From positions 44,113 through 108,112 of the IMG/VR virus record IMGVR_UViG_3300050194_000011: a stretch of DNA of 64,000 bases; one strand, 5' to 3'. Numbering within the stretch: position 1 is the stretch's first letter; the number at the start of each line of letters is the position of its first letter. The stretch is from a virus. The notes beneath the pieces are model-generated. The model saw only the letters and a list, made by a program, of their open reading frames with translations, was not told the DNA's origin and did not search any database. Shown here in pieces: positions 21,615 to 41,390 of the stretch. A program made the translations under genes and the position numbers.

Positions 21615-21860
21615 TTATTTTGTTAATTGTTTTAGAATTTTATTCTTTTCTTCATTCCACTTACGACATTCTTGATACAACTTGAAAGTTTCTGCAGATT
21701 GATTAAGCAGATCCGTATCAAGAGAACTTTTTGCTATAGGTAGATTCGGACAAGAGTAAAAAACTTCTGATGGTATATTTAGGTTAGCCGAACTTCTTTC
21801 TGTATGAGTAGCACATGCAGATAGAAGAAAGATAAAGATTGATATGATTAGATTTTTCAT
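21615..21860 (-). CDS. o-spanin (Rz1-like outer-membrane lipoprotein)
   Basis: 81 aa; MKNLIISIFIFLLSA|C lipobox, Pro/Cys periplasmic part (CPNLP...YQECR), downstream of an i-spanin-like gene. Confidence 0.75.
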   Translation of the reverse strand: MKNLIISIFIFLLSACATHTERSSANLNIPSEVFYSCPNLPIAKSSLDTDLLNQSAETFKLYQECRKWNEEKNKILKQLTK

Positions 21861-22141
21861 GGCTTGTAATTTGGATTTCTAGCTAGATTCGAACGAACCC
21901 ATGAATCTTCATCATTCGCAAGTTTATCCATGTGCTCTTTATGAATAGAAGGATTTCCAGCTAGAAAATAACGAACATCTAAATTTTTATCATTCACTAA
22001 CTTATCAATGTGTTCTTTATGAAGAGATGGATGTCTAGCTATTCTACAACGAACATTTAAATCGTTATCGTTCACAAGTTCATCGTGATGTTCTTTCGAA
22101 CCATACTTTATCAGAAAGTTTATATGTTCGTCTTTGATCAT
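21857..22141 (-). CDS. LRV/HEAT-like 26-aa repeat protein (3 units), inserted between the spanins
   Basis: N-cap MIKDEHINFLIKYGSKEH, units xLVNDxxxxVRxxLAxNPSLHKEHxD, C-cap NPNYKP; ATGA overlaps at both ends. Confidence 0.8.
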   Translation of the reverse strand: MIKDEHINFLIKYGSKEHHDELVNDNDLNVRCRIARHPSLHKEHIDKLVNDKNLDVRYFLAGNPSIHKEHMDKLANDEDSWVRSNLARNPNYKP

Positions 22142-22605
22142 TTGTTTGCTTCTTTAATCATGCTATTCAGCGTATCAAGATATGTATCGGAAAATCTATT
22201 GCAAACTTGGTTTCCATCTTTGTTGAATTCAATCGTAACATTCTTTGATGAATCACGAGGATCTTTGACGATAAAAATCTTTCTAGGAGCTTTGTTCTTC
22301 TCTGACTCATACATAGCAGATAAAGAATCAATCTGAAGATCTTTATCTGCTATATCTTTCTTGATTCCTTCTAAGTTTGCTTTGACATTATTTGATATGT
22401 CATCTAGCTTCTTGTTGTATGCTGCTTGATCGGCTTCGTACTTCTGGATTGTCTTCAGAAGAGGAGCTTGCCAATGATTCTTTGATTGATAGAATCCAAA
22501 GAAGAAAGACGCAACTAGAAGCAAAGCAGCTAGAATTGGCTTCCAGTATTGGAGACACCAAGAGAACATTAATTTACCGATGTTTAAAAGAGTTAGAAAT
22601 GTCAT
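22138..22605 (-). CDS. i-spanin (Rz-like inner-membrane protein)
   Basis: 155 aa; single N-terminal TM (YWKPILAALLLVASFFFGFY) followed by a coiled coil; paired with a downstream lipoprotein. Confidence 0.75.
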   Translation of the reverse strand: MTFLTLLNIGKLMFSWCLQYWKPILAALLLVASFFFGFYQSKNHWQAPLLKTIQKYEADQAAYNKKLDDISNNVKANLEGIKKDIADKDLQIDSLSAMYESEKNKAPRKIFIVKDPRDSSKNVTIEFNKDGNQVCNRFSDTYLDTLNSMIKEANK

Positions 22606-22961
22606 GGCTTGTAATTTGGATGATTTTTGATTCTGTAACGAATATCAGAATATTCATGATTGACTAGCTTATCCATATGTTCTTTATGAAGAGAAGGATT
22701 TCCAGATAGAACATAATGAACATTCGGATTTTCATCATGCACTAACGTATCCATGTGTTCTTTATGAAGATTAGGATTTCCAGATAGATACATACGAACA
22801 TTCCAATTTTTATCATTCGCTAGCTTATCCATGTGTTCTTTATGAAGAGATGGATTTTGAGCTATATTCTCACGAACATATGTATCTTTATCATCGATTA
22901 ACTCATCCATATGTTCTTTCGAACCATATCTTGCTAAGAAATTCTTGTGTTGTTCTTTCAT
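22602..22961 (-). CDS. LRV/HEAT-like repeat protein (4 units)
   Basis: 119 aa; MKEQHKNFLARYGSKEH N-cap, HPNYKP C-cap; ATGA overlaps at both ends. Confidence 0.8.
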   Translation of the reverse strand: MKEQHKNFLARYGSKEHMDELIDDKDTYVRENIAQNPSLHKEHMDKLANDKNWNVRMYLSGNPNLHKEHMDTLVHDENPNVHYVLSGNPSLHKEHMDKLVNHEYSDIRYRIKNHPNYKP

Positions 22962-23161
22962 ACATCTTTTCCTAGATATTTTTGGTTCATTCTATCAAGA
23001 ATATTTTGTTTAGCTTCTTCCAGAACAACGTCTTCCAAATCATGTTTGTCCATAGCAACTTCATGACAAAGTTCTTCATCTTCATTCATTAAAGTCTTTT
23101 GATGTTCCTTGCTTCCATAGTTAGCAAGGAACTTCTTCTTAGCAAATTCCTTGGATATTAT
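22958..23161 (-). pseudogene. Degenerate LRV-family ORF with ATA in place of the start codon (or non-canonical start); not in the ORF track
   Basis: Hand translation (I)ISKEFAKKKFLANYGSKEHQKTLMNEDEELCHEVAMDKHDLEDVVLEEAKQNILDRMNQKYLGKDV*. Upstream stop forms TAATA where a TAATG coupling would be expected; its TGA overlaps ATG 22961. Confidence 0.6.
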
Positions 23162-23970
23162 TAATCCAGAAGATGTGGCTTCTCATCCCATGCTTTATGA
23201 AGACTAGGAGCGAGTCTCGTGAAGTCGTCATTGGAAATTTCTTGATCCTTGGCATCCATGAATTGATGTCCTAGATTCTTTCCGCCAGAAAAATACTGGA
23301 AGACTTTACCTTTCTTCTTATCATGAATAACGTGAAGACCACCTTCTTTGTTATAACGATCGAACATGTTCTTCGAATCATTTGTATAAGCTGTGCACCA
23401 ATCAGTCTTGCCTTTTTCTGAGCCACCGCCGTAGAGTTCTTGCGAAGCCTTCATATCTTTCAATTTGTATATCTTGATATTTTCGTCTTCGTGCTCAAGT
23501 TCTCGACCAGGATGTGGTTCTTCACTCACTGTATGCTTATCTGGATTTTCTTGGTATGGCTCGACAGCATCAGAAAGTTCTTTTACAGAATCATATTGAT
23601 TGATGTCTTTCTTTGGAAGCTTATGCTTGAATTGATCAAACGTTGAAAGTATACCATGAATCTTAGGAGCATCTTCTTGGAAAACAGGCGCATTGCGCGT
23701 CAGTTTACGATGCGATAGCTCATCATCAGACATACCAGAACGATTGTACTGATTTACAATCCAGTTCGTATAAAGTTTCTTCTTTGTTGGATCGCCATTC
23801 TCAGCAAAGTGATCAACGATTGCATCTGAATCTTTGTGATCGGCAAGTTTATCATGTGATGTGTTAATCTTGCCCTTGAATTGAGTCTTCAAGAAATCAA
23901 TACGTCCTTCGATCAAGAGTTGTTCTTGGAGTTCGATGTATTTCAGTGCGATGCTATCTAGTTTTGCCAT
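23161..23970 (-). CDS. Putative capsid-internal protein, WCT-motif (PcfJ-like) domain
   Basis: 269 aa; LLIE|GRIDFLK leader; DPTKKKLYTNWI and TDWCTAY motifs shared with 28415-29824. Confidence 0.55.
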   Translation of the reverse strand: MAKLDSIALKYIELQEQLLIEGRIDFLKTQFKGKINTSHDKLADHKDSDAIVDHFAENGDPTKKKLYTNWIVNQYNRSGMSDDELSHRKLTRNAPVFQEDAPKIHGILSTFDQFKHKLPKKDINQYDSVKELSDAVEPYQENPDKHTVSEEPHPGRELEHEDENIKIYKLKDMKASQELYGGGSEKGKTDWCTAYTNDSKNMFDRYNKEGGLHVIHDKKKGKVFQYFSGGKNLGHQFMDAKDQEISNDDFTRLAPSLHKAWDEKPHLLD

Positions 23971-23983
23971 GGTCTTTCCTATA

Positions 23984-24364
23984 TTAGTGGGATTTGTTAT
24001 TTAATCTTTGATTTTTAATTTTTTGAGCCATATGTTTTACATCAAAAGAAGGACTTTGCGTAGCTTTTTCTATCACATCATCCGGACAATTTGGGTGAAC
24101 AATTACCTGATATTTATCATATGTATAATCTTTATAAGCTTTTCTCAAATGATCTGCCGTGATGTATTTATTTCTTGGTTCTAGCATTCTTCTAGTAATA
24201 TATGTCGAGTCGTCATTCATTAATTTATCTATATGATCGCTAGAAAGATTTGGTCTATTGATCAATTCTGCTCTGACATAGTCGTCTGGATCTTCGATGA
24301 GTTCATTTGCATGATCCTCTGAGCCATATCTAGCCAAGAATTTCTTATGCTCTTCTTTGATCAT
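23984..24364 (-). CDS. Divergent LRV/HEAT-like repeat protein
   Basis: 126 aa; MIKEEHKKFLARYGSEDH N-cap; DPDDYVRAELINRPNLSSDHIDKL unit; ATGA overlap with upstream gene. Confidence 0.7.
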   Translation of the reverse strand: MIKEEHKKFLARYGSEDHANELIEDPDDYVRAELINRPNLSSDHIDKLMNDDSTYITRRMLEPRNKYITADHLRKAYKDYTYDKYQVIVHPNCPDDVIEKATQSPSFDVKHMAQKIKNQRLNNKSH

Positions 24365-24852
24365 TTTGATATCTCTATCTGATGCAACTTCACAGGAAAT
24401 GGAGAGTAAAAAGATGTATCTTTCATCTCAGAGCTTGTCATGTTATATCCAAGCCTCTTTGAAACTTTCTTCGCCAATGGCTCAAAAGCAGCATGAACAT
24501 CTGGAGTTCCAACGATTCTAACTTTGCCTCCTTTATCTACATGATCTTTACCCAGCGCGATTGCAGTAGATACGAATCTAGGATTTGGTTTATGTGCTTC
24601 TGGATTCATTGTTCCTTGCATACCAGAAGCAGGAAGGTGATGTAACTCTAGAGCACCATCATAATGGAAAGCTGCTATCTTATCACCTTCTTCTCCAATA
24701 TCATAAACTTTGACATTCTTTGCGCCTTTTAATTCGGCAGAATGTTTCATCATAAAGCCCATCATATCGTCTTCTCCATCTTTGATAGAATATGGCTTAT
24801 CAAAGACTTCTGCGATGTATTCTTCTAGGAGATGTTCTTTAAAAGTTATCAT
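24361..24852 (-). CDS. Putative capsid-internal protein with capsid-targeting leader
   Basis: 163 aa; MITFKEHLLEEYIAE|VFDKPY resembles T4 IP leaders MKTFKEF/MKTYQEFIAE. Confidence 0.55.
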   Translation of the reverse strand: MITFKEHLLEEYIAEVFDKPYSIKDGEDDMMGFMMKHSAELKGAKNVKVYDIGEEGDKIAAFHYDGALELHHLPASGMQGTMNPEAHKPNPRFVSTAIALGKDHVDKGGKVRIVGTPDVHAAFEPLAKKVSKRLGYNMTSSEMKDTSFYSPFPVKLHQIEISK

Positions 24853-25301
24853 GGCGTGTAGTTTGGGTGCTGTTTAATTTTTATACGAACATCTCGATCT
24901 TGATCATCGGCTAATTTATCCATATGTTCTTTATGAAGATTAGGATTTTCAGCTAGATCCCAACGAACGTATGTATCTTTATCGTTCACTAGCTTATCCA
25001 TGTGTTCTTTATGAAGATTAGGATTACGAGCAATGCAAGACCTAACAATATTATCGTTAGAATCAACTAGCTTATCCATATAAGATTTAGAAAATTTTTG
25101 ATATTCTATCGCTGTATGTCTTACCTCATCATCAACTGTGTTCTTTGGATCATCAAGTAACGTATCTCTGTGATTTTCTTTTAACATGGGATTTTTAGCT
25201 AGATTATTTCTGATATTAATTCTATCATCATTCATCAATTCATCCTGATGATTCCCAGATCCATATCTATCCAAGAATCTTTTATGCTCTTCTTTGATCA
25301 T
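24849..25301 (-). CDS. LRV/HEAT-like repeat protein (5 units)
   Basis: 150 aa; MIKEEHKRFLDRYGS N-cap, HPNYTP C-cap; ATGA overlaps at both ends. Confidence 0.8.
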   Translation of the reverse strand: MIKEEHKRFLDRYGSGNHQDELMNDDRINIRNNLAKNPMLKENHRDTLLDDPKNTVDDEVRHTAIEYQKFSKSYMDKLVDSNDNIVRSCIARNPNLHKEHMDKLVNDKDTYVRWDLAENPNLHKEHMDKLADDQDRDVRIKIKQHPNYTP

Positions 25302-26293
25302 CTCAGAACTTCCGAGTTTGCATTTGACGTGTTCCCACCTGTTACATGGAGTAATCCATCATGTACAATCGAGTGCTGTGTATCTTTATCTTTCGTAGCT
25401 GTGAAAACAGTAGGAGAATGTCTATGAGTAGCATATCCTTCTGACGCCATGTGAATTTCATGCTTAGTTGAAACTTTTTCTGGCTCATCTGCGATTTTGT
25501 ACTTCTTGTATCCATTCCCGCTTTCTGTTCCGATCGCATATGGCTTAGAAGCTTTAGTTGCATCAATAAAATTCTGAACTGTCTTGAAAGGAACTTCATA
25601 TCCTATGTCAGTTTTATTCAGAATTTCCTTATGTTTGCTCGCTTCGTCTGAAGAAAGTTCCTTTTCGAGATTTTGATTAAAGTCAGTAGAGTTGGCTACA
25701 GTCCCATATCCTTTTCTTCCATCTTTTGTGATCGTTACAATGTGATTTCCTGTATCTTGATCATGGAAATGCATCTTGGTTACGGTTGATTTCTGTTCTG
25801 GATTGTATTCGGTAGGATGCGGAACTTCTTCTGATTCTCTTGTTACTTTGAATGGATCTCGATACCCATCAGCATGAGCGTCTTCTAGATATTGACGCAT
25901 ACGACCAGATATATCAGATTTAGATTTGAGTCTTTTCGTTGTTCTGACTCCATTTCTGTTTAATGAACCGTTTTCTCTGAATTTTCCATAATCGCCAAGA
26001 TTATGTAAGATAGATTCGCCAAGCTTTGGATGCATTGCAAGCATAGTAGGATGCCAAGTAACATTAACATCACCATAAGAATTAGTATGAGCAATGGCAA
26101 TTGGCATTCCTGTTTCTTTCTCATGGATTTCATGAAAAGATTCAGTTGCTTTTGTTGGAACTGGATCACTGAGTCGATATCCATACTTTTCTTTATCTGC
26201 AGCATGTCGAGCTTTCAGCGCTGCTAGATTATTCTTAATAAGCTTCCAATCTAGTTCTTCGTTCAGAATTTCTGTAGTTTGATTTGTCATCAT
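25298..26293 (-). CDS. Hypothetical His-rich protein, putative capsid-internal protein
   Basis: 331 aa; TTEILNE|ELDW leader with an L-x-E site; composition like neighbouring internal-protein candidates. Confidence 0.45.
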   Translation of the reverse strand: MMTNQTTEILNEELDWKLIKNNLAALKARHAADKEKYGYRLSDPVPTKATESFHEIHEKETGMPIAIAHTNSYGDVNVTWHPTMLAMHPKLGESILHNLGDYGKFRENGSLNRNGVRTTKRLKSKSDISGRMRQYLEDAHADGYRDPFKVTRESEEVPHPTEYNPEQKSTVTKMHFHDQDTGNHIVTITKDGRKGYGTVANSTDFNQNLEKELSSDEASKHKEILNKTDIGYEVPFKTVQNFIDATKASKPYAIGTESGNGYKKYKIADEPEKVSTKHEIHMASEGYATHRHSPTVFTATKDKDTQHSIVHDGLLHVTGGNTSNANSEVLR

Positions 26294-26299
26294 TATTCC

Positions 26300-28378
26300 T
26301 TATTGCATTTCGACAGCACCGCGATCGATCTGAGTAGCTGTACGAGTTCTATTGAAGAAGTCTGTCGTCGGAATATTAAGTCCAGTTGATATACCACTGT
26401 TTCTAGCTGGACTGGACGTAATCAAGTTAGCATCGATTGATCCAGGCGTTTGATTTACTAACCCAGCTGAACCACAAAGATTTCCATTAACTCCGCAAGA
26501 TGTTCCGCCGCCACGAACGCTTTCTTTGATATTGTATGTTTCGATGAACGTCCAATAGTTACCATCTGGTTCTGGATAGATATCTGCAGATTGTTGATCT
26601 GCACCAGATACAGGACCTACAACAAAAGGATGTCCAATAAGAATATTATTGGTTGCATATAATGTTCCGGCTACTTGTGATCCAGCGCCTGCATATACAA
26701 CAGTGTTTCCTTCGCTTATAATCGTATTGTTAATCAAATAAACAGATTCTCCAGCATGTGCAACACTGACAGCCATCGCATCACCAAGTGCTCTACAGTT
26801 AGTAACATCTTCTGTGAATGATTTGCCATAAAAGAAATTACAATTACCAACAACAATTGAATTCGTTATAACAACATTGCCATTCACTTTCACCTGATTA
26901 CCAGCATTACCCTCGGCTTTCACTCTATTAAGCTTGATGTTGCCTCCAAGATTATGATACAGCAAATCCAATCCATCTGATACGTTGTAACGGAATGTTG
27001 CATCTTCTATTATCCAATCTCCAGCTGTAGCTGCTGCGCCCAATCCATCGCCATACCACGAGTGACAATTCGTGATTGTCTTATCTGGATATGTTTCAAT
27101 ACAACCATTCCATTCAACCATCAATCCAGTGAATTTCATTGTTCCTGTGTTTGATCCATTAGCACTATATCCATCAAATGCATTGGCAGCAAGACGAACA
27201 TTAGTCATTGTGAAATTGTTAATCACATTAGAGCTAATCCCTCCACCAGCTAATCCATGAATATCAAGATCGCGGAACACGATGTTTGATGCGTTTGTTA
27301 TTGATATCCCATCATTAGCCCAGTTTCCTCCGGATACACATGATGCTGCTCCAGGGTGATTGTAGCAATTTCCGTGATCTGTGATTTCAATACAAGCTAA
27401 AGTTATATTGTTTGCGTTTTGCATATTAATCATCATATAAGCAGCGCTAGCTCCCCAAAGAGTTGGCTTCAAATTAGAAGGACATCCAGATGTGTATCCT
27501 TCTCCAACGATACGCGTCGGATGACTGACGTCTGCACCAGATGGAATCGGCTTCATGTAGCAATCGTAACTATACGAAGAATTACATCCATCTGAATACG
27601 CTTGTGATGTTGAATCGATTCCAAGCGCATAATTACCATAATGTATGATAAGCGTGTCTCCTCCGCTTATACGAATAGCGTTATAGCTTCCGATTGGAGG
27701 AATTGCAACGAATGGATGTCCCCAAGCGCAAGCAAGTCCTGTTCCTGTTCCTGGATACGCTGCATTAGCTAAGCCATTACATTGAGTAGAATTTCCTCCA
27801 TCAGGACGAACATGATACGTTGTTCCATATGCAGCATACAAAGGATCGGTCGATACATGTACAGACCAAACTGCGTATGACATGTTACTATCTGGAAAGG
27901 TATTGCTTCTGAGCAAAGCACCAGAAGATATGCCATCAGATGATTCTAATACAGAATTTTTGAATACAGACCCATTGACAAGAGTCGAAGAAAAAGTGCC
28001 ATTAGCTGATGTAGAATATGGTGTTATAATTTTACATAAAGCCGGACTTAAACATCCTGTGACAGAATTCGGAACCGTATCGAATTTCTGAGCAGGAGAA
28101 AAATCAAGAAGTACCGATGTACTCAATGCCTGTGATGCAGATGTGGCATCTGCCAATGATGTAAACGTAAAACTTGTGCAGCGATCAAATAATGTGTTGC
28201 ATCGATCTCTGGCAAAATGTACATCGTACAGAGAGCCAGCGACGTTGACATTACTTGCTCCGACCAATTTTCCGTTGTTCGATACAACCAATTCTAAAGC
28301 AGACGCATTAGAACACGCTCCGATTAGCATAACAGTTGATAAAACAAATTTGTACAATATATTTTTTGTAATTGACAT
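26300..28378 (-). CDS. Secreted parallel beta-helix protein with extra N-terminal domain and choice-of-anchor-Q-like C-terminus
   Basis: Likely start MSITK at 28378 (RBS TAAGGA); signal peptide ...VMLIGACSNASA|LEL; YHVRPDGGNSTQCNGLANAAYPGTG, FRYNVSDGLDLLYH, EGNAGNQVKV, SPARNSG...TDFFNRTR...IDRGAVE. Confidence 0.75.
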   Translation of the reverse strand: MSITKNILYKFVLSTVMLIGACSNASALELVVSNNGKLVGASNVNVAGSLYDVHFARDRCNTLFDRCTSFTFTSLADATSASQALSTSVLLDFSPAQKFDTVPNSVTGCLSPALCKIITPYSTSANGTFSSTLVNGSVFKNSVLESSDGISSGALLRSNTFPDSNMSYAVWSVHVSTDPLYAAYGTTYHVRPDGGNSTQCNGLANAAYPGTGTGLACAWGHPFVAIPPIGSYNAIRISGGDTLIIHYGNYALGIDSTSQAYSDGCNSSYSYDCYMKPIPSGADVSHPTRIVGEGYTSGCPSNLKPTLWGASAAYMMINMQNANNITLACIEITDHGNCYNHPGAASCVSGGNWANDGISITNASNIVFRDLDIHGLAGGGISSNVINNFTMTNVRLAANAFDGYSANGSNTGTMKFTGLMVEWNGCIETYPDKTITNCHSWYGDGLGAAATAGDWIIEDATFRYNVSDGLDLLYHNLGGNIKLNRVKAEGNAGNQVKVNGNVVITNSIVVGNCNFFYGKSFTEDVTNCRALGDAMAVSVAHAGESVYLINNTIISEGNTVVYAGAGSQVAGTLYATNNILIGHPFVVGPVSGADQQSADIYPEPDGNYWTFIETYNIKESVRGGGTSCGVNGNLCGSAGLVNQTPGSIDANLITSSPARNSGISTGLNIPTTDFFNRTRTATQIDRGAVEMQ

Positions 28379-28414
28379 TACATTTTCCTTATGTTTGAGA
28401 TAATTCATATCTAT

Positions 28415-29824
28415 TTATTTGGCTTTCTTATTCTTGATTGCTGCTTCTTGCACAGAAGGATCGATATCGTCTTTGAGTGCTTCTACGTGTTCTTTAGGAG
28501 TATTTGGATTTCCTGCAACATTAGCTCGAACAAAATCATATTTTGATTTAGCAAGTGTAGCAAGATGTTCTTTGGGAGTTGATGGAGATTTAGCCAGAGC
28601 AGCATGCCATGTAGGATGTTCCATCAACTTATCATGAATTTCACGCGGAGCATTAGGATGTAGAATCGCAGCGTTTGTCATTTCTCTGGATTTTGTCTTG
28701 TCAAAAACACTCTTGACAATTTCTGGTTCTGTTTTCTTCTGATTCAGAATTATGCTATCCGCAACTTTTCCTCGAGCATACAATTTAGCTCTGAGATCTT
28801 TGTTTGCATTTGGATGATCATACATCGAATAATCGGTTTCATGTCCTTCATCTGTTATCTTATGAAGAACATCAATCGGACTATGTTTATTCTGAAGTAA
28901 TCCATGTTTATATATCATAATTGACTTGCCATTTGAGAAATCGCCTGGAGCTTTAACATCAGCAAGTTTTCTCAGGTGATCTTTGTTGCTAGATTCTTTA
29001 GCAACTTGATTTAATACTTTATTATGAGCAGCGGCATCCGGATCATGTTGATGAGCATTGTTAACCATATGATCGATTTGATCTGGTGACGTTGTTGCAA
29101 AATGCTTGCCCTGGAATTCTGGTATGCCTTTGATAGCAGGATGATCTCCAACAAATTTATTCATATCAATCGGCTTATCCAGATCATTCATGAATTGACT
29201 AGATTCAAAGTGCATTTGATATTTCTTGTTATCTGCTTTGGTGTTTACAACATAAAGAGGGCCTTGTTTGTTATAATTATCGAAAAGTGCCGAAGAATCA
29301 CCAGCAGTGCACCATTTCGTATTTGCACCATAGAACTTAGCAGCTTCATGAGTCTTGATTTTACGAACAGAAACATCATCGTCATCATGAAGAACTTCGG
29401 ATCCATCATCTTTGATCTGTCTAATTTCTTCTTTCTTCGAAGCAGCAGTTCCAACATGAGGCTGAACAGCATCTTCGACTGAGTTCAGATCAGGATACTT
29501 TCCGATATCTTTCTCATGGAGCTTTGCTTTGTATTTGTCAAAGTTTGACAGAGCGTCGTGGATACGAGCATGATCTTCTTGTCTGAAATCGCCGGCATGA
29601 TATTTGTCGGCAATCCATCCTGTATAAAGTTTCTTCTTGGTTGGATCACCATGCTCGGCGAAATGATCTACAATTGCTCCTGTATCCTTATGTTCGCCGT
29701 ATTCATCATGAGAATGATTTATACCTTTTTCTGTAAATCGTTGCTTCGTGAATTCAATGCGATTTTCTGTCAGGAGTTCTTCATTTAACTCATGGTCTTT
29801 TATAAATTCTTTGAATGATATCAT
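28415..29824 (-). CDS. Putative capsid-internal protein: WCT-motif domain fused to C-terminal LRV/HEAT-like repeats
   Basis: 469 aa; MISFKEFIKDHELNE|ELLTE| leader; paralogue of 23161-23970; C-terminal LAKSPSTPKEHLATLAKSKYDFVRANVAGNPNTPKEHVEAL repeats. Confidence 0.6.
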   Translation of the reverse strand: MISFKEFIKDHELNEELLTENRIEFTKQRFTEKGINHSHDEYGEHKDTGAIVDHFAEHGDPTKKKLYTGWIADKYHAGDFRQEDHARIHDALSNFDKYKAKLHEKDIGKYPDLNSVEDAVQPHVGTAASKKEEIRQIKDDGSEVLHDDDDVSVRKIKTHEAAKFYGANTKWCTAGDSSALFDNYNKQGPLYVVNTKADNKKYQMHFESSQFMNDLDKPIDMNKFVGDHPAIKGIPEFQGKHFATTSPDQIDHMVNNAHQHDPDAAAHNKVLNQVAKESSNKDHLRKLADVKAPGDFSNGKSIMIYKHGLLQNKHSPIDVLHKITDEGHETDYSMYDHPNANKDLRAKLYARGKVADSIILNQKKTEPEIVKSVFDKTKSREMTNAAILHPNAPREIHDKLMEHPTWHAALAKSPSTPKEHLATLAKSKYDFVRANVAGNPNTPKEHVEALKDDIDPSVQEAAIKNKKAK

Positions 29825-29871: not shown

Positions 29872-29879
29872 TATTTATG
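29872..29879 (-). promoter_or_regulatory. Putative late promoter (CATAAATA)
   Basis: TAAATA core about 48 nt upstream of ATG 29824. Confidence 0.45.
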
Positions 29880-30711
29880 ATGGTGATTGAATAACAACAT
29901 CGCCATTTTCTTTTTTGACTTTAATTTTTCCACTTGGAAGAAAAGAATGAATTTCATGAAACTGGACATTTCCGTTAATATTCTCACCTATTTTCTGTCC
30001 TATTGTTAATTCTTTCTTTTGAATCAACTTGTTTCGCTTGATTGAATTTTCTTCTCTTTTAGCTTTCAGATCGGATAAGTCAGGGAGAACACCAGCTTGT
30101 CTAAATGTATCTACTGCATTGTCTAGATGTTTCTTTGTTTTTCCTGCTATTGTAATTTCATCAGATCCCATGCCTCCGTCTGCGTAATATAAAATCGCAT
30201 GTCCTGATTCTGGATTTTCATGTGTATGCCATCCAAAATGAATAGTTCTAGATACAACAGAGCTACCTGATACGTTACTATTTCTTTTCAATCCCATTTT
30301 TGCGATAGCTGCGTCTGTTGAATTTAAACCAGCCGCGGATTTTCTGATTGTTGCTTCTGTGTCGCCGTATCCGTTTCCTCCGACTCTATGCAGAGAATAA
30401 GTCTTTGTATGTGGATAATTAGTTTTTACATAGTGTTTTGCATCTTCTAAAGAATGCGATGTTGCATCTGCAAGAGAATTTGCCTCATGATCAGAAAGCC
30501 AATTAATTCCTCCTGGATTGAACACTGCTTCGTTCAGTTTATTTTTGTTGTTTCTGAAGAATTGGATTGTATCTTCTATTACATTTTCCAATAAATTTTC
30601 ATCTGTTATTCCAGAAACCTCATCAAGAAGATCGATCAAGAAAGACTCGCTCATAATTATGAGTTTTCTTTTATCTTTTATCTTTGTATATGCTTCGGCA
30701 ATTTTATCCAT
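29875..30711 (-). CDS. Hypothetical protein, putative head-internal protein with acidic prodomain
   Basis: 278 aa; acidic N-terminus with several L/I-x-E sites ending KNKLNE|AVFN. Confidence 0.45.
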   Translation of the reverse strand: MDKIAEAYTKIKDKRKLIIMSESFLIDLLDEVSGITDENLLENVIEDTIQFFRNNKNKLNEAVFNPGGINWLSDHEANSLADATSHSLEDAKHYVKTNYPHTKTYSLHRVGGNGYGDTEATIRKSAAGLNSTDAAIAKMGLKRNSNVSGSSVVSRTIHFGWHTHENPESGHAILYYADGGMGSDEITIAGKTKKHLDNAVDTFRQAGVLPDLSDLKAKREENSIKRNKLIQKKELTIGQKIGENINGNVQFHEIHSFLPSGKIKVKKENGDVVIQSPS

Positions 30712-30876: not shown

Positions 30877-32526
30877 ATGATTGATATGACAATACAAGAA
30901 AAAATTAAAGACTTTGATAAGAATGATTGGCGTCAGGTCTCAATGCAATACAAGAAAGAACCAAAGCATGGATACACGCCAAAATATCTAGAAGTCATCA
31001 ATTACATCAAAGAAGCATACATAGACATTCCTTTTGCGGAAGCTGTTTTCATGTTGAAAACTGGACAAGAAAGGCAATCGTGTGTTGCATGCGGATTGTT
31101 TAACGTATTCAGGCAAGATCCTCAGCCGATGTACAATGTCTATTGTTCTCACAAATGTAGATCTGCAGATAAGAATACAACAGCAGAACCGATCATCATT
31201 GATGGTGTTGAATACGATAATTTTGTCAAAGCATCAGAAGCAATAAATGTATCAAGATTCTTGATCAGACATAGACTCTTTGATCCAACTTTTCCGAATT
31301 ATAAATGGAAAGCAGAAGATCATGATAAGAAATGTTTGGAAAAATTAAAAGAGTCACATCCAAAGATGATTGACGAAAAATATTTACAACAATGGAAAGA
31401 AAGCGGAAAAACAAGAAAATGGCTTGCTGATGATATGAATCTGACAGCAGAAACTATAGATTATGCATTGACATTCTTTGAGATAGAAAGACAGTTTTCG
31501 CAGATCTCAAAAGAAGCAGAAGAACTAAAGAACGATCCAGAATTACTTCGATCTTTGTATTCTGAGTTTACATCCGATGAACTTGCTGTGAAGTATAACA
31601 TATCACCATCGGCTATCTTACAATGGATGAAAATTCATGGCATAGAAGCTGATAAGAGTACAAGCCAATCTGCGATCGAAAGACACTTGATAGAATTCAT
31701 TAAATCTATGGATGATTCGATAGAAATTTTAGATCGAGACAGAACAGCGATTGGGAAAGAATTGGATATATACATCCCAAGTGCAAATCTTGCAATCGAG
31801 TGTGATGGTTTATTCTATCATTCGGAAGAACCAACTACTGCTGATAAAAATAAACATTCGATCAAGCAAAGATTATGCGAAGAAAAAGGAATTACGCTTC
31901 TAAGATTTGTTGATGTTGGAGAAACAGGAGATTCGAATAAACTGAAGATCATCAAATCAATTTTGATGGCAAAATTAGGTATGACCATCAAGATTCATGG
32001 AAGAAAATGTAATCTAGTAGATGTAGATTCTTCTGCAGGATCGAACTTCTTCAGAGAAAATCACATATCAGGAAATCGTGGCGCCTCAATGTACATCGGT
32101 CTGGAATACGAGAACGAACTAGTCATGTGTATGTCATTTGGACGACCAATATCAAGTAGATCACATGAATGGGAAATTGTTCGGATGGCGGCTAAAAGAA
32201 TGACTACAGTTTTCGGAGGATCAAGTAAAATATTCAAAGAATTTCTAAGAAGAACATCTGGAGATGTGATGACGTATGCTAATCTCAGATTTGGGAATGG
32301 TTCTGTCTATGAAAAATTAGGATTTACAAAAATAGGAAGAACCGATCCTGGATATATGTACACTGATATGAAAACAACATATTCCAGACACAAATTTCAG
32401 AAACAATCGATTCAATCTGTTTGTAAAATTTATGATCCAAATAAAACAGAACAACAGAATGCTGAAATTAATGGATATAGAGTTTATTGGGATTGCGGGC
32501 ATGCAATCTACGAATTGAAAAGATAA
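30877..32526 (+). CDS. Free-standing Hef-like homing endonuclease (Vsr/DUF559-like nuclease, Zn ribbon, HTH)
   Basis: 549 aa; CVAC...YCSHKC; ELDIYIPSANLAIECDGLFYHS...KNKHSIKQRLCEEKGITLL; C-terminal YANLRFGNGSVYEKLGF...YRVYWDCG; only large plus-strand gene. Confidence 0.75.
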   Translation: MIDMTIQEKIKDFDKNDWRQVSMQYKKEPKHGYTPKYLEVINYIKEAYIDIPFAEAVFMLKTGQERQSCVACGLFNVFRQDPQPMYNVYCSHKCRSADKNTTAEPIIIDGVEYDNFVKASEAINVSRFLIRHRLFDPTFPNYKWKAEDHDKKCLEKLKESHPKMIDEKYLQQWKESGKTRKWLADDMNLTAETIDYALTFFEIERQFSQISKEAEELKNDPELLRSLYSEFTSDELAVKYNISPSAILQWMKIHGIEADKSTSQSAIERHLIEFIKSMDDSIEILDRDRTAIGKELDIYIPSANLAIECDGLFYHSEEPTTADKNKHSIKQRLCEEKGITLLRFVDVGETGDSNKLKIIKSILMAKLGMTIKIHGRKCNLVDVDSSAGSNFFRENHISGNRGASMYIGLEYENELVMCMSFGRPISSRSHEWEIVRMAAKRMTTVFGGSSKIFKEFLRRTSGDVMTYANLRFGNGSVYEKLGFTKIGRTDPGYMYTDMKTTYSRHKFQKQSIQSVCKIYDPNKTEQQNAEINGYRVYWDCGHAIYELKR

Positions 32527-32581: not shown

Positions 32582-33886
32582 TTACAGCAAGTTCGTGATT
32601 TTTAGACGCCTAAAAAATCTGTTAGAATTCGCTGTCAAACCACCATTCACGTCCGTAGGATTAGCAAATGGGTGAGCAACGATGCCATATCTAGTTTTAA
32701 ATGCGATCTTCGGTTGGAAGCTCAATGGATCAATAGCGCGATGCAATTGAAGAGCTTGGTAAGGACAGTAATACAGACCAGCCGTATATGGATCAGCGCC
32801 TTTACCGATAACTGCAAGCCAGTTTTCGTTGTTCGAACCAAGGTATGGATCGATGAACACGCGATAACGACCATTAAGGATACCAGCAAAAGTAATCGAT
32901 GTTTCGTCGATAATTTCTGGACCTTGAACAGCAGGAGCAAAGTCAAGCACACCAGCAAGAGCCAAGGCAGATGCCACGTCGCTTGAGCAAACGATAACAT
33001 TACCACGGACCAAACGGGTTTCCTTGGAGATTTGGTTAGCATCGCGTTCGATACCAAACATAAGTCCCTTGAACTTTTCAACAGACCAACGACCACCAGC
33101 ATCTGTATCCAAGTCGAAAACGCCAGGGATAGTAGCATATTGAGCACCAGGAACAGCCGATACCAAAATGGTACGGATGATTTCACGGTTTTGTTCGGCG
33201 ATAATTTCCGTAGAAAGAATGTCGATCAATTCTTGCTCAGCGTCAAGTCCATGAATAGCGCGAAGGTCTTGTACCAATTCTTGCGAGTATTCAGCTTTCA
33301 AAGCACGAGTAACAGCGGTAACTGTTTTGCTTTCAAAGGTCATTGCCATTTCAGGAATAGCAGGCTGACCAGAAGTACCCAGAGCTTCACCTTGTGCAGT
33401 AGTGATACCAACACCATAAGTGAACGTAGCAGCAGGAGTGCTATTCAATGAACCTGGATTAACACCAGCTTGAACAGAACCACCTTGAGTAGCAGAACCA
33501 GAGAATGCCGAATCAGCTTCTTGGAAGAGAGCTTCAGTACCAGCTTGGTTCGTGTACTTAGCACGTCTAGCAAAGATCTTACCAGTAGGCATGACCATTG
33601 GTTGAACGCCGCAGAATTCGAAGCCAATATTCTGAGGAGCAGTTCTGCGTACCAGAGAAATAAGGACTGGATCATACTTGGCAATACCACCTGTATCAGC
33701 ATATCCGCCGACAGCGTTGGTTGGAGCCGACTCAAAAAGAGCTTGCTTACCTTCGTTGTTAGCTTTTTCTTGGTTTTCCAAGAGAATAGCTGTTACTTTA
33801 CGACGATATGCGTCTTTGATAGGAGCGCTACCTTCGATATCGAGGATTTCACCCCACTTAGTGACTAAACTTACATCGTGTTCCAT
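32582..33886 (-). CDS. gp23: Major capsid protein
   Basis: 434 aa; VTAILLENQEK, YDPVLISLVRR, GVQPM.MPTG.IFA, VTAVTRALKAEYSQELVQDLRAIHGLDAEQEL, FQPKIAFKTRYGIVAHPF. Confidence 0.97.
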   Translation of the reverse strand: MEHDVSLVTKWGEILDIEGSAPIKDAYRRKVTAILLENQEKANNEGKQALFESAPTNAVGGYADTGGIAKYDPVLISLVRRTAPQNIGFEFCGVQPMVMPTGKIFARRAKYTNQAGTEALFQEADSAFSGSATQGGSVQAGVNPGSLNSTPAATFTYGVGITTAQGEALGTSGQPAIPEMAMTFESKTVTAVTRALKAEYSQELVQDLRAIHGLDAEQELIDILSTEIIAEQNREIIRTILVSAVPGAQYATIPGVFDLDTDAGGRWSVEKFKGLMFGIERDANQISKETRLVRGNVIVCSSDVASALALAGVLDFAPAVQGPEIIDETSITFAGILNGRYRVFIDPYLGSNNENWLAVIGKGADPYTAGLYYCPYQALQLHRAIDPLSFQPKIAFKTRYGIVAHPFANPTDVNGGLTANSNRFFRRLKITNLL

Positions 33887-33948: not shown

Positions 33949-35214
33949 TTATTTTTTTACCGAAGTTTTTCTGATAAAATCAGCATATTGTTTGACATTA
34001 GTATCTACAGATACTATCTTAGCATCCAGTTGAGTCTCTTCTGTCAAATTCTTTGATGAAATATCTAACTTCTTACCTGATAGATTGCTTACTTCTTTCT
34101 TATTCTGTCCAAAGAAAGATTCTTTGATGATCTCAGCTCTCTTCGTAAAGAGGTCCGATGTTTCATACTCAAAGTCTTCCATAATGGAGCGGAATTTTCC
34201 AGAGTCAATATCTGTCATTCCTTTGGTCGAGTTTTCCAAGATAATCTCACGGTTGGCTTTATTCAAATCCGAGCGTTGTTCCTCTAGCAGTTGTTGCGCA
34301 GTGGACAATTCGTCCTTGCTTGCTTTTAATTGCTCTTCTAGGGAATTAACGATATCAAACTTCTCGACTGGGATGTCGATATAGTGTGACTCGAATAATT
34401 GCTTCATTCCATTCATAAACGATTCAGTCAATTCTGACCTAATACTAGCTTCTAGAGCTAACTCATTATCATGCATCCATTGCTCTGACAGTTTGCCAAA
34501 GTATCCATCAATCTTATCAGTTAATTCATTTTCGTAGACTTGAACAGCTTCGTCAAGTCTAGTTTTGTATTCTTCTTCTAGTTGAGTTGTCTTTTCTTCA
34601 ACTAGCATACTTACCTTTTCAGAAACCTTCGCTTCGAACAGAGTAGATACCTTCAATTGGAATTCTTCTGAAAGTTCTTCTTCCTTGACAAAGTCTTGGA
34701 TTTCTGTTGATTCTTCCATCTTACCTGTTGCCATATCAACCATCTTCTTCAGATGCGAAGGATGTTGCATCAGGTTATCTGCGCCTTCGCGATTTCCTGT
34801 ATAGATGTTGATCGATTTTGTCTTTCCATCAGAATGACGAGCAACGATAGAAGCACCAGTATGTCCAGGCTTAGTTAGGTGATGGATAGTCCAGTCACCA
34901 TGACCGATAGTGTCTTTAGCTTCTTCTGTTCCGTCAATCGTGAATGTTGATTCTTCGATTGCTGATTCTTGTACTCTGTCTTGATCTTGTTCATCTGGAT
35001 CGCCATCTGGATCTTCCTTAGCGGACTCAGAACTCTTCAAATCAGGATCGATTGGATTCTCGATAGATACAGCTGGCTCTTGATCAACACGATCAGCTGT
35101 TTGATCTCCTGCATCAGGATCTTTTGCTTTATCGGCGTTAGCATCAGTAGGATCTTCCTTATCAGAATCTTTCTTAGCTTCCATGAGTTTCAGCAACTTT
35201 TCTTCAATTGACAT
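33949..35214 (-). CDS. gp22: Prohead core scaffold protein with a His-rich insert
   Basis: 421 aa; EELSEEFQLKVSTLFEAKV, KIDGYF....EQWM.DNELALE...RSELTESFM.GMKQLFE.HYIDIP; position between gp21 and gp23. Confidence 0.9.
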   Translation of the reverse strand: MSIEEKLLKLMEAKKDSDKEDPTDANADKAKDPDAGDQTADRVDQEPAVSIENPIDPDLKSSESAKEDPDGDPDEQDQDRVQESAIEESTFTIDGTEEAKDTIGHGDWTIHHLTKPGHTGASIVARHSDGKTKSINIYTGNREGADNLMQHPSHLKKMVDMATGKMEESTEIQDFVKEEELSEEFQLKVSTLFEAKVSEKVSMLVEEKTTQLEEEYKTRLDEAVQVYENELTDKIDGYFGKLSEQWMHDNELALEASIRSELTESFMNGMKQLFESHYIDIPVEKFDIVNSLEEQLKASKDELSTAQQLLEEQRSDLNKANREIILENSTKGMTDIDSGKFRSIMEDFEYETSDLFTKRAEIIKESFFGQNKKEVSNLSGKKLDISSKNLTEETQLDAKIVSVDTNVKQYADFIRKTSVKK

Positions 35215-35251: not shown

Positions 35252-35923
35252 TTATCGAGTAGAAATTTTATTCAAAAAGTTCTGAAACTCTTTTAATTTC
35301 TGTTCTTCTAATTTATTCATTGATACTCTACGAATTCGTTCTTTACTTTCATAAAGATCTTTCTCGACAAGCAGATCGCCATACTTCAGGTAATGCGTTT
35401 CTTCCATGAGACAATCTACAAATGCATCTGCTACAGATGGATCAAATACAACGTCAGCAGCAGTTCTAATTTCATAGTCTTCTTTGACATGAACTTTTCC
35501 ATCTTTCTTGAAGGTAGATCCCATGCCTCTTGATGAAACGCCAATCTTGACTCCATCATTCAATAGATTAGCTAATAGCTGACCTAAAGGAGTAGATAGA
35601 ACCTTAGCTTTACCGATGAAATATTTTCCATCCTTTTCAAGAGATTCTGTCATGATACATGCACGCTCAGGATCAACAGAAATTCTTCCAGTTGGATGAT
35701 TCAATTCGCCAAGAGCTCTCTTTGGTTTGATGTATTCTTCTATGTATCTTTCAACAGCAGGAGCCATTACTTTTTCTGGATAGACTCGACCATTTTTGTT
35801 CTGCTTATCAAACATCAGAAATGGCCCTTGAATCTTCAAAGACCTTTTACCATTGACTTCTTCGACAAGAGTCTCTGTAGCAGATGCTAAATTTTGCTCT
35901 ATGAGTAGAATCTTATTAGTCAT
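35252..35923 (-). CDS. gp21: Prohead protease
   Basis: 223 aa; NKNGRVYP, RALGELNHP, GVSSRGMG, DVVFDPSVADAFV. Confidence 0.95.
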   Translation of the reverse strand: MTNKILLIEQNLASATETLVEEVNGKRSLKIQGPFLMFDKQNKNGRVYPEKVMAPAVERYIEEYIKPKRALGELNHPTGRISVDPERACIMTESLEKDGKYFIGKAKVLSTPLGQLLANLLNDGVKIGVSSRGMGSTFKKDGKVHVKEDYEIRTAADVVFDPSVADAFVDCLMEETHYLKYGDLLVEKDLYESKERIRRVSMNKLEEQKLKEFQNFLNKISTR

Positions 35924-39405: not shown

Positions 39406-41343
39406 TTATTGACCAGTGATTTCAGAGAATGCAACACCTTCTGGCGTAGCAATGAAGTTGAGTTTGATGAATCTGATAGACTTCGTAGACTTGATATAAA
39501 TGTTCGCAGCAAAAGTCTTTGATTGAATAACAGTTGAAGTATTTACATTCGAGCCAACATCCACATAGAAGTCGGAAATACCACCACGTCCTTGAATGTC
39601 TCTGAGGAATGGTGTAATCATCGAAACGAAAAGTTTACGAGTCAATTCTGTATTTTGTTCGAACAAGAAGAATCTAGCGCTTGACGAAATAGATTTTTCA
39701 AGTAGAATGAACAACAAACGAATACCAATAGCATCAAAGTCTGATGGGCGATCAAGCAACGTTTTATCAGAGAATAGAATTGGTCCAGAGTTAGGGAACG
39801 ATACAACAAAGTTGATCGAGTTTTGGAACAATGTATCTCTTTGTGATTTGTTAGGATTGATAGCCAAACGAGTTACGTTCTTAACAGATCCGCGATTGAA
39901 ACCAGCAGGCGAAGCCCATTCATTTCTTGTGTAGATAGAACGAGCAGTAACACCGGCGCAATCACCATTCAATGCAATGTAACGATATACGTCGTTATAT
40001 TTGTCGTATTGATATTTGAAACCAGAATCGAGGAATGCGTAAGAAGAACCAGAAAGAGCATTTCGGAATGCAACGATCTTGTTGATGTTATCCGACGTAT
40101 CACCAATAATCACAGAATTATCTGAAACATTCACAGGCGATACAAAAGCTACGCAATCTCTACGAACTTCAGCAACGTTTTGTATTGCAAAGTTTGCAAC
40201 AGTAGGAGAAACCTTACCTGTCATCAAAAGAGTAATATCGTATTTCTGTGCATCTGCAAAGATTGAAATTGCAGATTCTTGTTCGCCATCAGTAGCACCA
40301 TATCCATCTGCTCCGCCTGAAAGAGTTACTGTCAGAGGTTTCACAAGATTCTTATAAGAACCAGGAGCAGTAGAATCGCCAAAATCCAATCCAACAGAAG
40401 TAACATTGGATGGAATTGGATGATCCATCCACCAAACCCATGTTGATTCACGAAGAGCATTTTTGTAGTAAGAAACGGTCCCATCATATTTCTTAGCATT
40501 TGATGCTTTTGAAATATTTTCGAGTTTTTCTAGAATCTGACCTTTTACTCCGGTAATCTTACCAGTAGCATCTAACACGATGATATGCATACCATCTCCA
40601 GTCGATTCCGATGCAACTGCTTGATCGGAGTCAATAGGAGCAGCAGCGAACTGCGATGCGTATTCCCATGTAGCTACAGCAGTTACATTAGGAGCAGCAA
40701 TTCCAGGAATATCAGATACTGTAATTTCTGTATCGCTTACGATTCCTGTAACAGATAAAGTCAATGCAGATCCACTTACGCTTACAGGCGATCCAGCAAC
40801 ATTGAATGTTAAAATGTCACCAAGTTGAACTTGAGATAAGAATGATGTTCCAGTTCCTGTAATTGTATTACTTGAATCAGACAATGATACTGTACCTGAT
40901 AGCGTTCTTTTGAACGTAGCAGCGTCAGCAACAGATATCTTGATGTTGTTTCCTAGAATGCCTGGATACTTAGCAGCGAACATGCCTACTACGGCAGATC
41001 CATTCGCGTAATTGGCTTCCCAGTCTTGGATGTTCTTTACAGAAATAGCAGTACCAGATGTTACAGCGTTCTTCTGTCCAGCAGTTGCTGTTCTGACAAG
41101 TCTTAGATCAGAAGAATACTGCAAGAAATTGTAAGCTGTAAACCAGTGATTGTAAGTGCTATTATTTGGCTTACCAAAATAATAGACCAGATCTGCCTCG
41201 TTTGTTACCTGAGTGACGTCGTTAACAGCACCCCATTCAAATTCACCGGCTAAAGCCCCAATTGATGATGCAACAGGAGTGATCCCTGTCGTCAGATCGG
41301 TTTCGGTAAATTCGACGGCTGGTGAGATTGAAAAATATGCCAT
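39406..41343 (-). CDS. gp18: Tail sheath protein
   Basis: 645 aa; SPAVEFTETDLT, GEFEWG, FLQYSSDLRLVR, YKYQYDKYNDVYRYIALNGD.AG, SPAGFNRG, FEQN..LTR..F. Confidence 0.97.
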   Translation of the reverse strand: MAYFSISPAVEFTETDLTTGITPVASSIGALAGEFEWGAVNDVTQVTNEADLVYYFGKPNNSTYNHWFTAYNFLQYSSDLRLVRTATAGQKNAVTSGTAISVKNIQDWEANYANGSAVVGMFAAKYPGILGNNIKISVADAATFKRTLSGTVSLSDSSNTITGTGTSFLSQVQLGDILTFNVAGSPVSVSGSALTLSVTGIVSDTEITVSDIPGIAAPNVTAVATWEYASQFAAAPIDSDQAVASESTGDGMHIIVLDATGKITGVKGQILEKLENISKASNAKKYDGTVSYYKNALRESTWVWWMDHPIPSNVTSVGLDFGDSTAPGSYKNLVKPLTVTLSGGADGYGATDGEQESAISIFADAQKYDITLLMTGKVSPTVANFAIQNVAEVRRDCVAFVSPVNVSDNSVIIGDTSDNINKIVAFRNALSGSSYAFLDSGFKYQYDKYNDVYRYIALNGDCAGVTARSIYTRNEWASPAGFNRGSVKNVTRLAINPNKSQRDTLFQNSINFVVSFPNSGPILFSDKTLLDRPSDFDAIGIRLLFILLEKSISSSARFFLFEQNTELTRKLFVSMITPFLRDIQGRGGISDFYVDVGSNVNTSTVIQSKTFAANIYIKSTKSIRFIKLNFIATPEGVAFSEITGQ

Positions 41344-41375: not shown

Positions 41376-41390
41376 TATTTACTATTTAGG
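41376..41390 (-). promoter_or_regulatory. Tandem putative late promoters for gp18 (CCTAAATA, AGTAAATA)
   Basis: Two TAAATA cores 33-45 nt upstream of the gp18 ATG. Confidence 0.55.

Follow-up and report, generated by a model that had tools for sequence, protein, structure and literature searches.

The fact that, among the late genes of an uncultured phage, genes for candidate internal proteins alternate with genes for small proteins made of LRV repeats led us to wonder what, if anything, ties the two kinds of gene together. The stretch in question, hereafter the window, is 64,000 nucleotides long (positions 44,113 to 108,112 of the IMG/VR record IMGVR_UViG_3300050194_000011, a record of 114.7 kb with an estimated completeness of 64%), and to judge from its genes the source phage is an uncultured T4-like myovirus. 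A first-pass annotation had read the array as a series of virion-delivered effectors, each followed by a repeat-protein partner of its own that inhibits, chaperones or retargets it, in the manner of a toxin-immunity array. Our comparison with related phages argues firmly against cognate pairs. We lean instead, with modest confidence, towards a composite reading in which a capsid-targeted hub, carrying what we call the WCT domain, would be supplied with solenoid modules either in cis, by fusion, or in trans, the free LRV genes being inserted cassettes.

The genes of the array are all encoded on the minus strand and tightly packed from 30711 down to the tail-fibre genes. In transcription order (lengths of proteins in amino acids, aa) they are:

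29875-30711, minus strand: 278-aa protein, with which the operon opens; leader MDKIAEAY, similar to the variant leader seen in short WCT proteins; no family match.
28415-29824, minus strand: 469-aa protein; leader MISFKEF...LLTE, WCT domain at about residues 20-235, a linker, and a C-terminal LRV/HEAT-like solenoid at about residues 300-469.
26300-28408, minus strand: 702-aa protein with an N-terminal signal- or lipobox-like sequence (...LIGAC); no Pfam or PHROG match.
25298-26293, minus strand: 331-aa protein, a backbone gene with an I/L-x-E motif within its first 12 residues; family not recognised.
24849-25301, minus strand: LRV150, a free LRV solenoid; constant N-terminal motif present, and an ATGA overlap with the gene on either side.
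24361-24852, minus strand: 163-aa protein; leader MITFKEHLLEEYIAE (MITFKEHL...), then VFDKPY.
23984-24364, minus strand: LRV126, a free LRV of divergent sequence that keeps the constant N-terminal motif and shows two recognisable repeats.
23161-23970, minus strand: 269-aa short-form WCT protein; variant leader ending in LLIE and followed by G, and a C-terminal helix at residues 247-263 (...APSLHKAW...).
22958-23161, minus strand: 'LRV67', probably a decayed LRV cassette, with ATA for ATG, a recognisable N-terminal motif and its repeats lost.
22602-22961, minus strand: LRV119, a free LRV of four repeats, co-folded below with the 269-aa protein.
22138-22605, minus strand: 155-aa i-spanin-like protein with an N-terminal transmembrane segment.
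21857-22141, minus strand: LRV94, a free LRV inserted between the i-spanin-like and o-spanin genes.
21615-21860, minus strand: 81-aa lipoprotein, an Rz-like o-spanin (phrog_456, phrog_2425).

A 68-aa gene and the tail fibres follow. By gene order the alternation is real, and it extends past the interval 22958-29824 in which it had been described, as LRV94 splits the spanin pair. The 702-aa gene, missing from the earlier list, lies inside the array yet outside the alternation, and has no counterpart in the three syntenic relatives discussed below. As for the translational coupling of each LRV gene to the gene before it, the overlaps themselves stand (ATGA, 4 nt, at 331-aa/LRV150, 163-aa/LRV126 and LRV67/LRV119), but they are not specific to those junctions: LRV150, LRV119 and LRV94 are each joined by an ATGA overlap to the gene that follows as well, LRV126 and the 269-aa gene being separated by a 13-nt gap. 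Because ATGA overlaps occur at nearly all junctions of the operon, coupling is uninformative about pairs; alternation and coupling are what a series of cognate pairs would display, and the like coupling of most downstream genes to the LRVs speaks against it. Nor could 'LRV67' be upheld as an intact LRV gene, for it has no ATG, GTG or TTG start and its repeat motif is lost after about 20 residues; given that its frame opens with ATA at the position of the paralogues' ATG and that the repeats are gone, it is probably a decaying LRV copy. We also considered, and rejected, a -1 frameshift joining the 269-aa gene to LRV67, which lies in the -1 frame: the junction (CTG GAT TAA) holds no slippery heptamer, and the 269-aa protein stops at the same C-terminal end as its orthologues in two of the relatives (L021 and L030).

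Evidence on pairing comes from three syntenic relatives, L030, L021 and L028. In L030, whose major capsid protein is 85% identical, gp23 is followed by a homing-endonuclease-like gene, a 454-aa WCT-LRV fusion (39% identity to the 469-aa protein), a 317-aa gene (30% to the 331-aa protein), a 148-aa gene (32% to the 163-aa protein), an extra 224-aa gene and a 253-aa short WCT gene (49% to the 269-aa protein), then by the i-spanin (34% to the 155-aa protein), the o-spanin and fibre genes. L021 presents gp23, the endonuclease-like gene (62%), a gene for a 663-aa leader-bearing protein, a 283-aa gene (44% to the 163-aa protein), the 268-aa P0068 (74% to the 269-aa protein), the i-spanin (47% to the 155-aa protein), the o-spanin, a 67-aa gene and a fibre gene, and L028 presents gp23, a 525-aa WCT-LRV fusion (40% to the 469-aa protein) and a 308-aa gene resembling the 331-aa gene (about 30%). 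The 317-aa gene of L030 and the 308-aa gene of L028 occupy the same place after the 469-like gene as the 331-aa gene does in the window. Searches with hidden Markov models (HMMs) of the repeat unit and of the N-terminal motif, and with BLAST, found no free LRV gene within the stretches fetched from these three phages. At the 317/148 and spanin junctions of L030, which LRV150 and LRV94 occupy in the window, the genes overlap directly by ATGA, and the spanin junction of L021 is a direct 4-nt overlap without an LRV. The arrays of the relatives are thus free of LRVs, which makes the backbone ancestral and the LRVs additions specific to this lineage. A further contig, L013, was rejected as a relative, since its 100% identity marks it as the same phage.

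The first-pass annotation had named the conservation of pairings in related phages as a check of its proposal, and the outcome goes the other way: two to four of the backbone genes (469-, 331-, 163- and 269-like), together with the spanins, are kept in L030 and L021, with no free LRV between them. Together with the presence of LRVs beside core genes and with a predicted docking motif common to all copies, both described below, this leads us to hold with high confidence that the array contains no cognate effector-partner pairs. The toxin-immunity analogy is not supported either, the partners not being co-inherited and the upstream proteins giving no sign of toxicity; the 331-, 163- and 269-aa proteins match no toxin family in Pfam or PHROGs. 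It is fair to say that the array resembles toxin-antitoxin or effector-immunity pairs in the alternation of small with larger genes, in their translational coupling and in the predicted binding of one pair. It differs from them in that the partners are not inherited together, in that the small genes share one predicted docking motif and stand beside core structural genes as well, and in that the 'effector' domain is found in related phages fused to a domain of the 'partner' type as one functional protein.

If the LRVs are not cognate partners, what then relates them to the WCT proteins? The 469- and 269-aa proteins are paralogues, as had been proposed (39% identity over 249 aa, E 2e-47), and the last 120-170 residues or so of the former indeed consist of LRV repeats (LRV_2 30.8 bits and LRV 27.5 bits, against Pfam cut-offs of 27 bits for LRV_2, PF25591, and 21.6 bits for LRV, PF01816; E 3e-10 against LRV119). 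In an AlphaFold2 model of the 469-aa protein, with a predicted local distance difference test score (pLDDT) of 91.8, the C-terminal solenoid matches 1lrv with probability 1.0, as well as armadillo proteins. The idea of a fused/split, or Rosetta-stone, pair of WCT and LRV holds both within this genome and across genomes. Fused forms comprise the 469-aa protein, the 454-aa protein of L030 (L030_454), the 525-aa protein of L028 (L028_525), a 572-aa protein of the metagenomic T4-like contig L015, which consists of a leader (MLRFKHFL), the WCT domain and about 12 LRV repeats, and 32 of the 99 WCT homologues that we found with the first 260 residues of the 469-aa protein. Separate adjacent forms are found in the window, where the adjacency is lineage-specific (absent in L021 and L030), and in two other lineages: in L017 a short WCT gene lies inside a cluster of six free LRV-like genes bearing an F(L/I)xKYG motif, and in L025 a short WCT gene is accompanied by one overlapping free LRV-like gene and two more nearby, the motif being kept. 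One of the LRV proteins of L025 has a D.IAEAYI-type leader of its own.

The repeats that follow the WCT domain are not of one kind. Among the 99 homologues they are HEAT/LRV repeats in 32, DUF4116 in 16, LRR in 4, WG in 2 and ANK in 1, and there are short WCT forms of 260-330 aa besides; the ESM Atlas displays a like range of fusions, in exclusively viral clusters. No HEAT/LRV repeats were found in the distant WCT homologues of jumbo phages (PA5oct, L005 and L010). Within the domain itself one Cys (C192 in the 269-aa protein, C172 in the 469-aa protein) is invariant, and Trp, Thr, Gln, His and Asp residues are nearly so; the domain could thus be an enzyme or only a carrier. Neither the WCT family nor that of the 163-aa protein matches a Pfam family. 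Our attempts to assign the WCT domain a known fold yielded no candidate that we retain: a Foldseek search of the PDB with the full 469-aa model recovered the C-terminal solenoid only, and VIA-align with the 269-aa model gave SidF as its best match (Z 6.7) and GNAT-type acyltransferases at Z 4-5 over about residues 150-266, values too low for a claim of fold. A search of BFVD with the WCT model returned uncharacterised viral homologues and weak PcfJ-like Foldseek matches (E 5e-3 to 0.1), and PcfJ is annotated on 26% of the members of one neighbouring Atlas cluster. The resemblance to PcfJ-like (PF14284) or polyvalent proteins is a lead only; no WCT protein matches PF14284 in Pfam, the 269-aa protein and related ones not even when hits of E up to 1 are admitted, and in the literature that we searched we found no description of PcfJ-like proteins as phage virion cargo. 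BFVD also returned matches of the WCT fold to Marseillevirus-like metagenomic giant-virus proteins, one of them annotated as an ankyrin repeat protein, so the domain may occur beyond tailed phages. Three leader-bearing proteins, at 2727-4718 of L021 (663 aa), 326-1738 of L015 (470 aa) and 5944-7824 of L025 (626 aa), carry a G-W-x-S-C motif similar to the WCT core T-x-W-C-T and may, by this motif, form a sister family; the 470-aa protein ends in LRV-like repeats.

The free LRV genes form a family in their own right, with at least 10 copies on the contig. Besides those of the array, they stand at the junction of the terminase large subunit (TerL) and tail sheath genes, at the junction of the i- and o-spanin genes, and outside the window among baseplate genes, where three copies neighbour a gp5-like protein of 830 aa and another protein of 410 aa. 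Two more are found on a relative of 91% identity that reaches past the end of the contig, one of them beside a T4 neck protein. Five of the six LRV genes of the window fall within 10 consecutive genes, and the local enrichment is therefore genuine. In all copies the N-terminus is constant over about 20 residues (MIKEQHKxFLARYGSKEH), with K2, H5, F8, L9, Y12, G13, H17 and D24 invariant in 10 copies; when the free LRVs of three phage lineages are taken together, only F8 and Y12 remain invariant and G13 nearly so. The 5' ends are conserved through synonymous differences, the DNA upstream of the ATG is unrelated, and in many copies a terminal HPNYKP precedes CCATGA, the ATG of which starts the next gene. 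Because of these three features, the free LRV genes behave, as judged from their sequences, as cassettes bounded by ATGA and precise to the open reading frame (ORF).

In Pfam, LRV150 (22.2 bits), LRV126 (25) and LRV94 (26.7) lie above the LRV cut-off, and LRV119 (21.0) just below it as well as just under the cut-off for HEAT. With the LRV protein of Azotobacter vinelandii (1lrv) and with HEAT and armadillo solenoids the phage LRVs share repeats of 24-28 residues and an alpha-solenoid form; unlike the A. vinelandii protein they are small and stand alone, with 3-7 repeats, an N-terminal motif of their own and no Fe-S domain. Near-identical internal repeat pairs in LRV198a, the copy between TerL and the tail sheath, where NPSLHKEHIDELVHDKDPDVRFKLTS for instance is exactly repeated once, suggest recent internal duplication.

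Could such a free LRV bind the short WCT protein? We co-folded the 269-aa protein with LRV119, using alignments that we supplied ourselves (42 and 10 rows), and obtained interaction prediction scores from aligned errors (ipSAE) of 0.69, 0.75 and 0.78, the best of three controls scoring 0.00. The pLDDT of the partner chain was at least 88 and contacts agreed between runs to at least 76%. In calibration of the tool, the mark applied here was reached by 58 of 80 solved complexes and by 2 of 110 mismatched pairs, figures that are only approximate here because the alignments were our own. The predicted interface sets residues 226-237 and the C-terminal helix of the 269-aa protein (F250, A254, L257, H258, W261) against residues 2-16 of LRV119, and the contacts of lowest error fall on LRV residues 8, 12 and 13, which belong to the constant motif and are those invariant or nearly invariant across lineages. 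The helix (...APSLHKAW...) is a hallmark of the short-form WCT subfamily. The model supports binding of the 269-aa protein to an LRV, which a cognate partner would also do, and the interface adjoins nearly invariant WCT residues (Q225, the His column and Q236), so that a regulatory effect is conceivable; the predicted docking surface of the LRV, a motif common to all copies, argues against a cognate code. Residues 227-235 of the 269-aa protein contain a 4-residue insertion (the GGKNLGH region) that is absent in P0068 and in the 253-aa protein of L030 (L030_253), and that lies within the predicted docking surface. A collinear split, in which the N-terminal motif of free LRVs would correspond to the linker after the WCT domain of the fusions, was rejected: F[LI]x[KRN]Y[GA] is confined to the N-termini of free LRVs and missing from all 99 WCT-family proteins. 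Recurrent fusions, adjacency in other phages and a co-fold that passes its controls together support a functional link, at the level of sequence and model, between the WCT domain and LRV solenoids.

The other half of the proposal concerns the head. The internal proteins of T4 are the classic case of proteins injected with phage DNA to disarm host defences, and few of them are understood. They are described as diverse defence proteins whose sole common feature is the capsid targeting sequence, CTS (PMC3012670). That the upstream genes of the array encode internal proteins, as the earlier annotation had it, is well supported for two of them and less so for the rest. The T4 leaders, read from NC_000866, are MKTFKEF in ipI and MKTYQEFIAE in ipII and ipIII; here the 469-aa protein starts MISFKEFI...LLTE and the 163-aa protein MITFKEHL. 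The strict leader occurs in 50 of 71 closer WCT homologues as against 3 of 131 ORFs of the phage's own genome, and WCT homologues nearly always close the leader with a Glu, at position 20/21. Candidate protease sites of the form L/I-x-E are present in three of the proteins (469 aa, LTE20; 163 aa, IAE15; 269 aa, LIE21), and the phage encodes an S77 protease of the gp21 type together with a scaffold of the gp22 type. In other T4-like contigs WCT genes are found just downstream of protease, scaffold and gp23. In phage PA5oct gp205, which is homologous to WCT proteins at 32% identity (E 1e-26), carries the annotation of a structural protein detected by electrospray ionisation tandem mass spectrometry (PMC7318152); the PA5oct paper does not discuss it. 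We consider it likely, on their leaders, Glu sites, proximity to gp23 and this virion homologue, that the 469- and 163-aa proteins are head cargo; the same is plausible for the 269-, 278- and 331-aa proteins, whose leaders are variant forms.

An exhaustive HMMER search with the 163-aa protein gave 95 clusters, mostly stand-alone proteins of about 150-200 aa, a condition that goes against a cognate LRV partner, with N-termini mostly of the form M.[ST]F[KR]E[YF]L.E followed by FDKPW. One homologue, P0108 (402 aa), has its 163-like part behind an ADP-ribosyltransferase (ART-PolyVal) domain (PF18760, E 2.8e-14), and the 283-aa orthologue of L021 (4715-5566) has an extra C-terminal domain with a DGFHR motif resembling the ParB/sulfiredoxin type and no Pfam match. 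With T4 IPI, IPII and IPIII the system shares a T4-like phage with an S77-type protease and a gp22-type scaffold, similar leaders, a Glu at L/I-x-E and a hypervariable locus with rapid turnover among relatives. It differs in that the cargo candidates are larger (163-469 aa versus precursors of 95-193 aa) and without sequence relation to IPI-III, in that the locus lies directly behind gp23, in that the WCT family is modular with variable repeats, and in that packaging and cleavage are predictions here.

One fair reading of these observations, and the one that we favour with the modest confidence stated at the outset, is that the locus is a hypervariable internal-protein (head-cargo) region, flanked by the major capsid gene and by the spanin and tail-fibre genes. 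The backbone proteins (469, 331, 163 and 269 aa) would be loaded onto the scaffold core by way of leaders of the T4 type or its variants, cut at L/I-x-E by the gp21-type protease (35252-35923), and injected with the DNA. The WCT domain would be the constant, capsid-targeted module and the solenoid the variable, target-binding one, carried in cis by the 469-aa protein, whereas the 269-aa protein would recruit any free LRV in trans, the N-terminal motif of the LRV (F8, L9, Y12, G13) docking on the hydrophobic face of its C-terminal helix. The free LRVs would then be exchangeable binding modules, possibly riding into the head with the hub, and the alternation would reflect insertion of cassettes into a tolerant, hypervariable cargo locus rather than cognate pairing. 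Docking in trans, which draws on the co-fold model, is a tentative part of this reading and to our mind falls slightly on the doubtful side. It is tempting to go further and to hypothesize a piggy-back loading, in which LRVs devoid of a targeting sequence dock on the short WCT hub, enter the head and are injected as a repertoire of binders of host factors, the 469-aa fusion being the hard-wired version; we regard this as rather unlikely. An arrangement of similar logic exists in the tail spikes of multi-receptor phages of the CBA120 and K64-1 type, where a conserved N-terminal anchor precedes a variable body in a hub-and-adaptor design. The likeness lies in paralogues with a short constant N-terminal docking module, differing bodies and one conserved hub, as proposed here; the hub would here be a capsid-targeted internal protein and the adaptors solenoids, with no relation in sequence or structure to the spikes.

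Several points weigh against this reading. The co-fold concerns one pair and one program, and its score supports binding of the 269-aa protein to an LRV short of demonstrating it. The model may draw on fused homologues that it has already seen, although no fused protein contains the FLxxYG motif itself. The 269-aa protein has, within residues 227-235, a Phe at the nearly invariant His of the family and may be an inactive copy, if that His is catalytic. The C-terminal helix of short WCT proteins is kept in L021 and L030 with no free LRV nearby; it may be conserved for another reason, or LRV partners may lie elsewhere in those genomes. The searches for a WCT fold gave a weak GNAT-like and PcfJ-like resemblance only. 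Finally, L/I-x-E is a short and common motif, and in the 331-, 269- and 278-aa proteins the leader is no more than a variant.

Among the alternatives, the one that survives best, unlikely as we judge it, would unlink the free LRVs physically from the internal proteins altogether. They would be proliferating cassettes, either selfish or making up, independently, a repertoire of proteins that bind host factors or act as decoys against them, their N-terminal motif being a loading signal of their own or a binder of a common host or phage partner, and their clustering a matter of tolerance to insertion. The scatter of the copies and their varying presence among relatives would follow naturally, as would the coincidence of cassette and ORF boundaries; the absence of FLxxYG from all 99 WCT-family proteins, by which the motif is no remnant of a fused linker, and the leader on an LRV protein of L025 are in keeping with it. 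It accounts poorly for the recurrence of WCT-HEAT/LRV fusions (32/99), for the clusters of LRVs around short WCT genes in two other lineages, and for a co-fold that passes its controls by means of exactly the invariant residues. A second alternative, which we find improbable, would make the LRVs accessory virion or assembly factors (decoration, spacer or chaperone) and the array proteins ordinary structural accessories that are not injected. All LRV copies do lie in late structural operons, beside the TerL, sheath, baseplate hub and neck genes, but close relatives differ in whether they have an LRV at one and the same junction, so that no LRV is indispensable for assembly; CTS-type leaders are present on the 469- and 163-aa proteins; and the ANK, LRR, WG and HEAT repeats attached to WCT domains are typical of target binding and not of conserved architecture. 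Least probable of all, and very improbable in our view, is that each upstream protein is a virion-delivered effector with the next LRV as its cognate inhibitor, chaperone or retargeting factor: real alternation, real ATGA coupling and the co-fold of the 269-aa protein with an LRV are set against backbone orthologues that have no LRV after them in L030 and L021, LRVs that also follow TerL, baseplate and i-spanin genes, and predicted contact residues, common to all copies, that speak against a cognate code.

What these results mean reaches somewhat beyond the window. A leader resembling the T4 loading tag runs through two large protein families of environmental T4-like phages that had not been described, that of the WCT domain (99 homologues) and that of the 163-aa protein (about 95 clusters), and in the first of them phages combine a constant module with many kinds of repeat domain, the repeat module perhaps being supplied either fused or as separate plug-in proteins. 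The principle of loading is already known from the CTS proteins of T4; what is new is the WCT family as a modular partner of repeats, the dispensability of the interleaved LRVs as revealed by a natural experiment, and the predicted docking of an LRV peptide on a cargo protein. Were docking true, it would represent a new way to load and diversify injected cargo, and would account for the retention, in one phage, of a dozen small solenoid genes whose products share the same N-terminus. In any case, alternating and translationally coupled small phage genes need not be toxin-immunity pairs.

The assignment of the contig draws on a 434-aa protein at 32582-33886, 54% identical to gp23 of cyanophages and of the Methylophilales phage Melnitz, and on a PHROGs search of the window, which identified portal, head maturation protease, scaffold, terminase large subunit, tail sheath and baseplate wedge protein. 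The features named above outside the array are:

33949-35214: gp22-type scaffold (phrog_237).
35252-35923: S77-type (gp21-type) head maturation protease (phrog_207).
39406-41343: tail sheath (PHROGs).
41386-41982, minus strand: LRV198a, a free LRV of seven repeats between TerL and tail sheath.
41984-43573: terminase large subunit, TerL (PHROGs).

A search of the phage collection gave no DNA match, and one of IMG/VR no relatives of the 163-aa protein or of LRV198a. Scans for sigma-70 promoters and terminators gave nothing above shuffled controls. Of the T4 late-promoter motif TATAAATA the window has only two copies, one of them before gp23; ATAAATA shows no enrichment, although copies lie just upstream of the 469- and 702-aa genes. 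Between gp23 and the cargo array stands a 549-aa homing-endonuclease or HNH-like gene (30877-32526, plus strand; phrog_3339, E 6e-88), the sole plus-strand gene of this region, with counterparts at the same position in L021 (62% identity) and L030 (31%). Lastly, L025 encodes at 4525-5178, beside its WCT and LRV genes, a NUDIX hydrolase with a D.I..AYI-type leader, which is a possible cargo enzyme.

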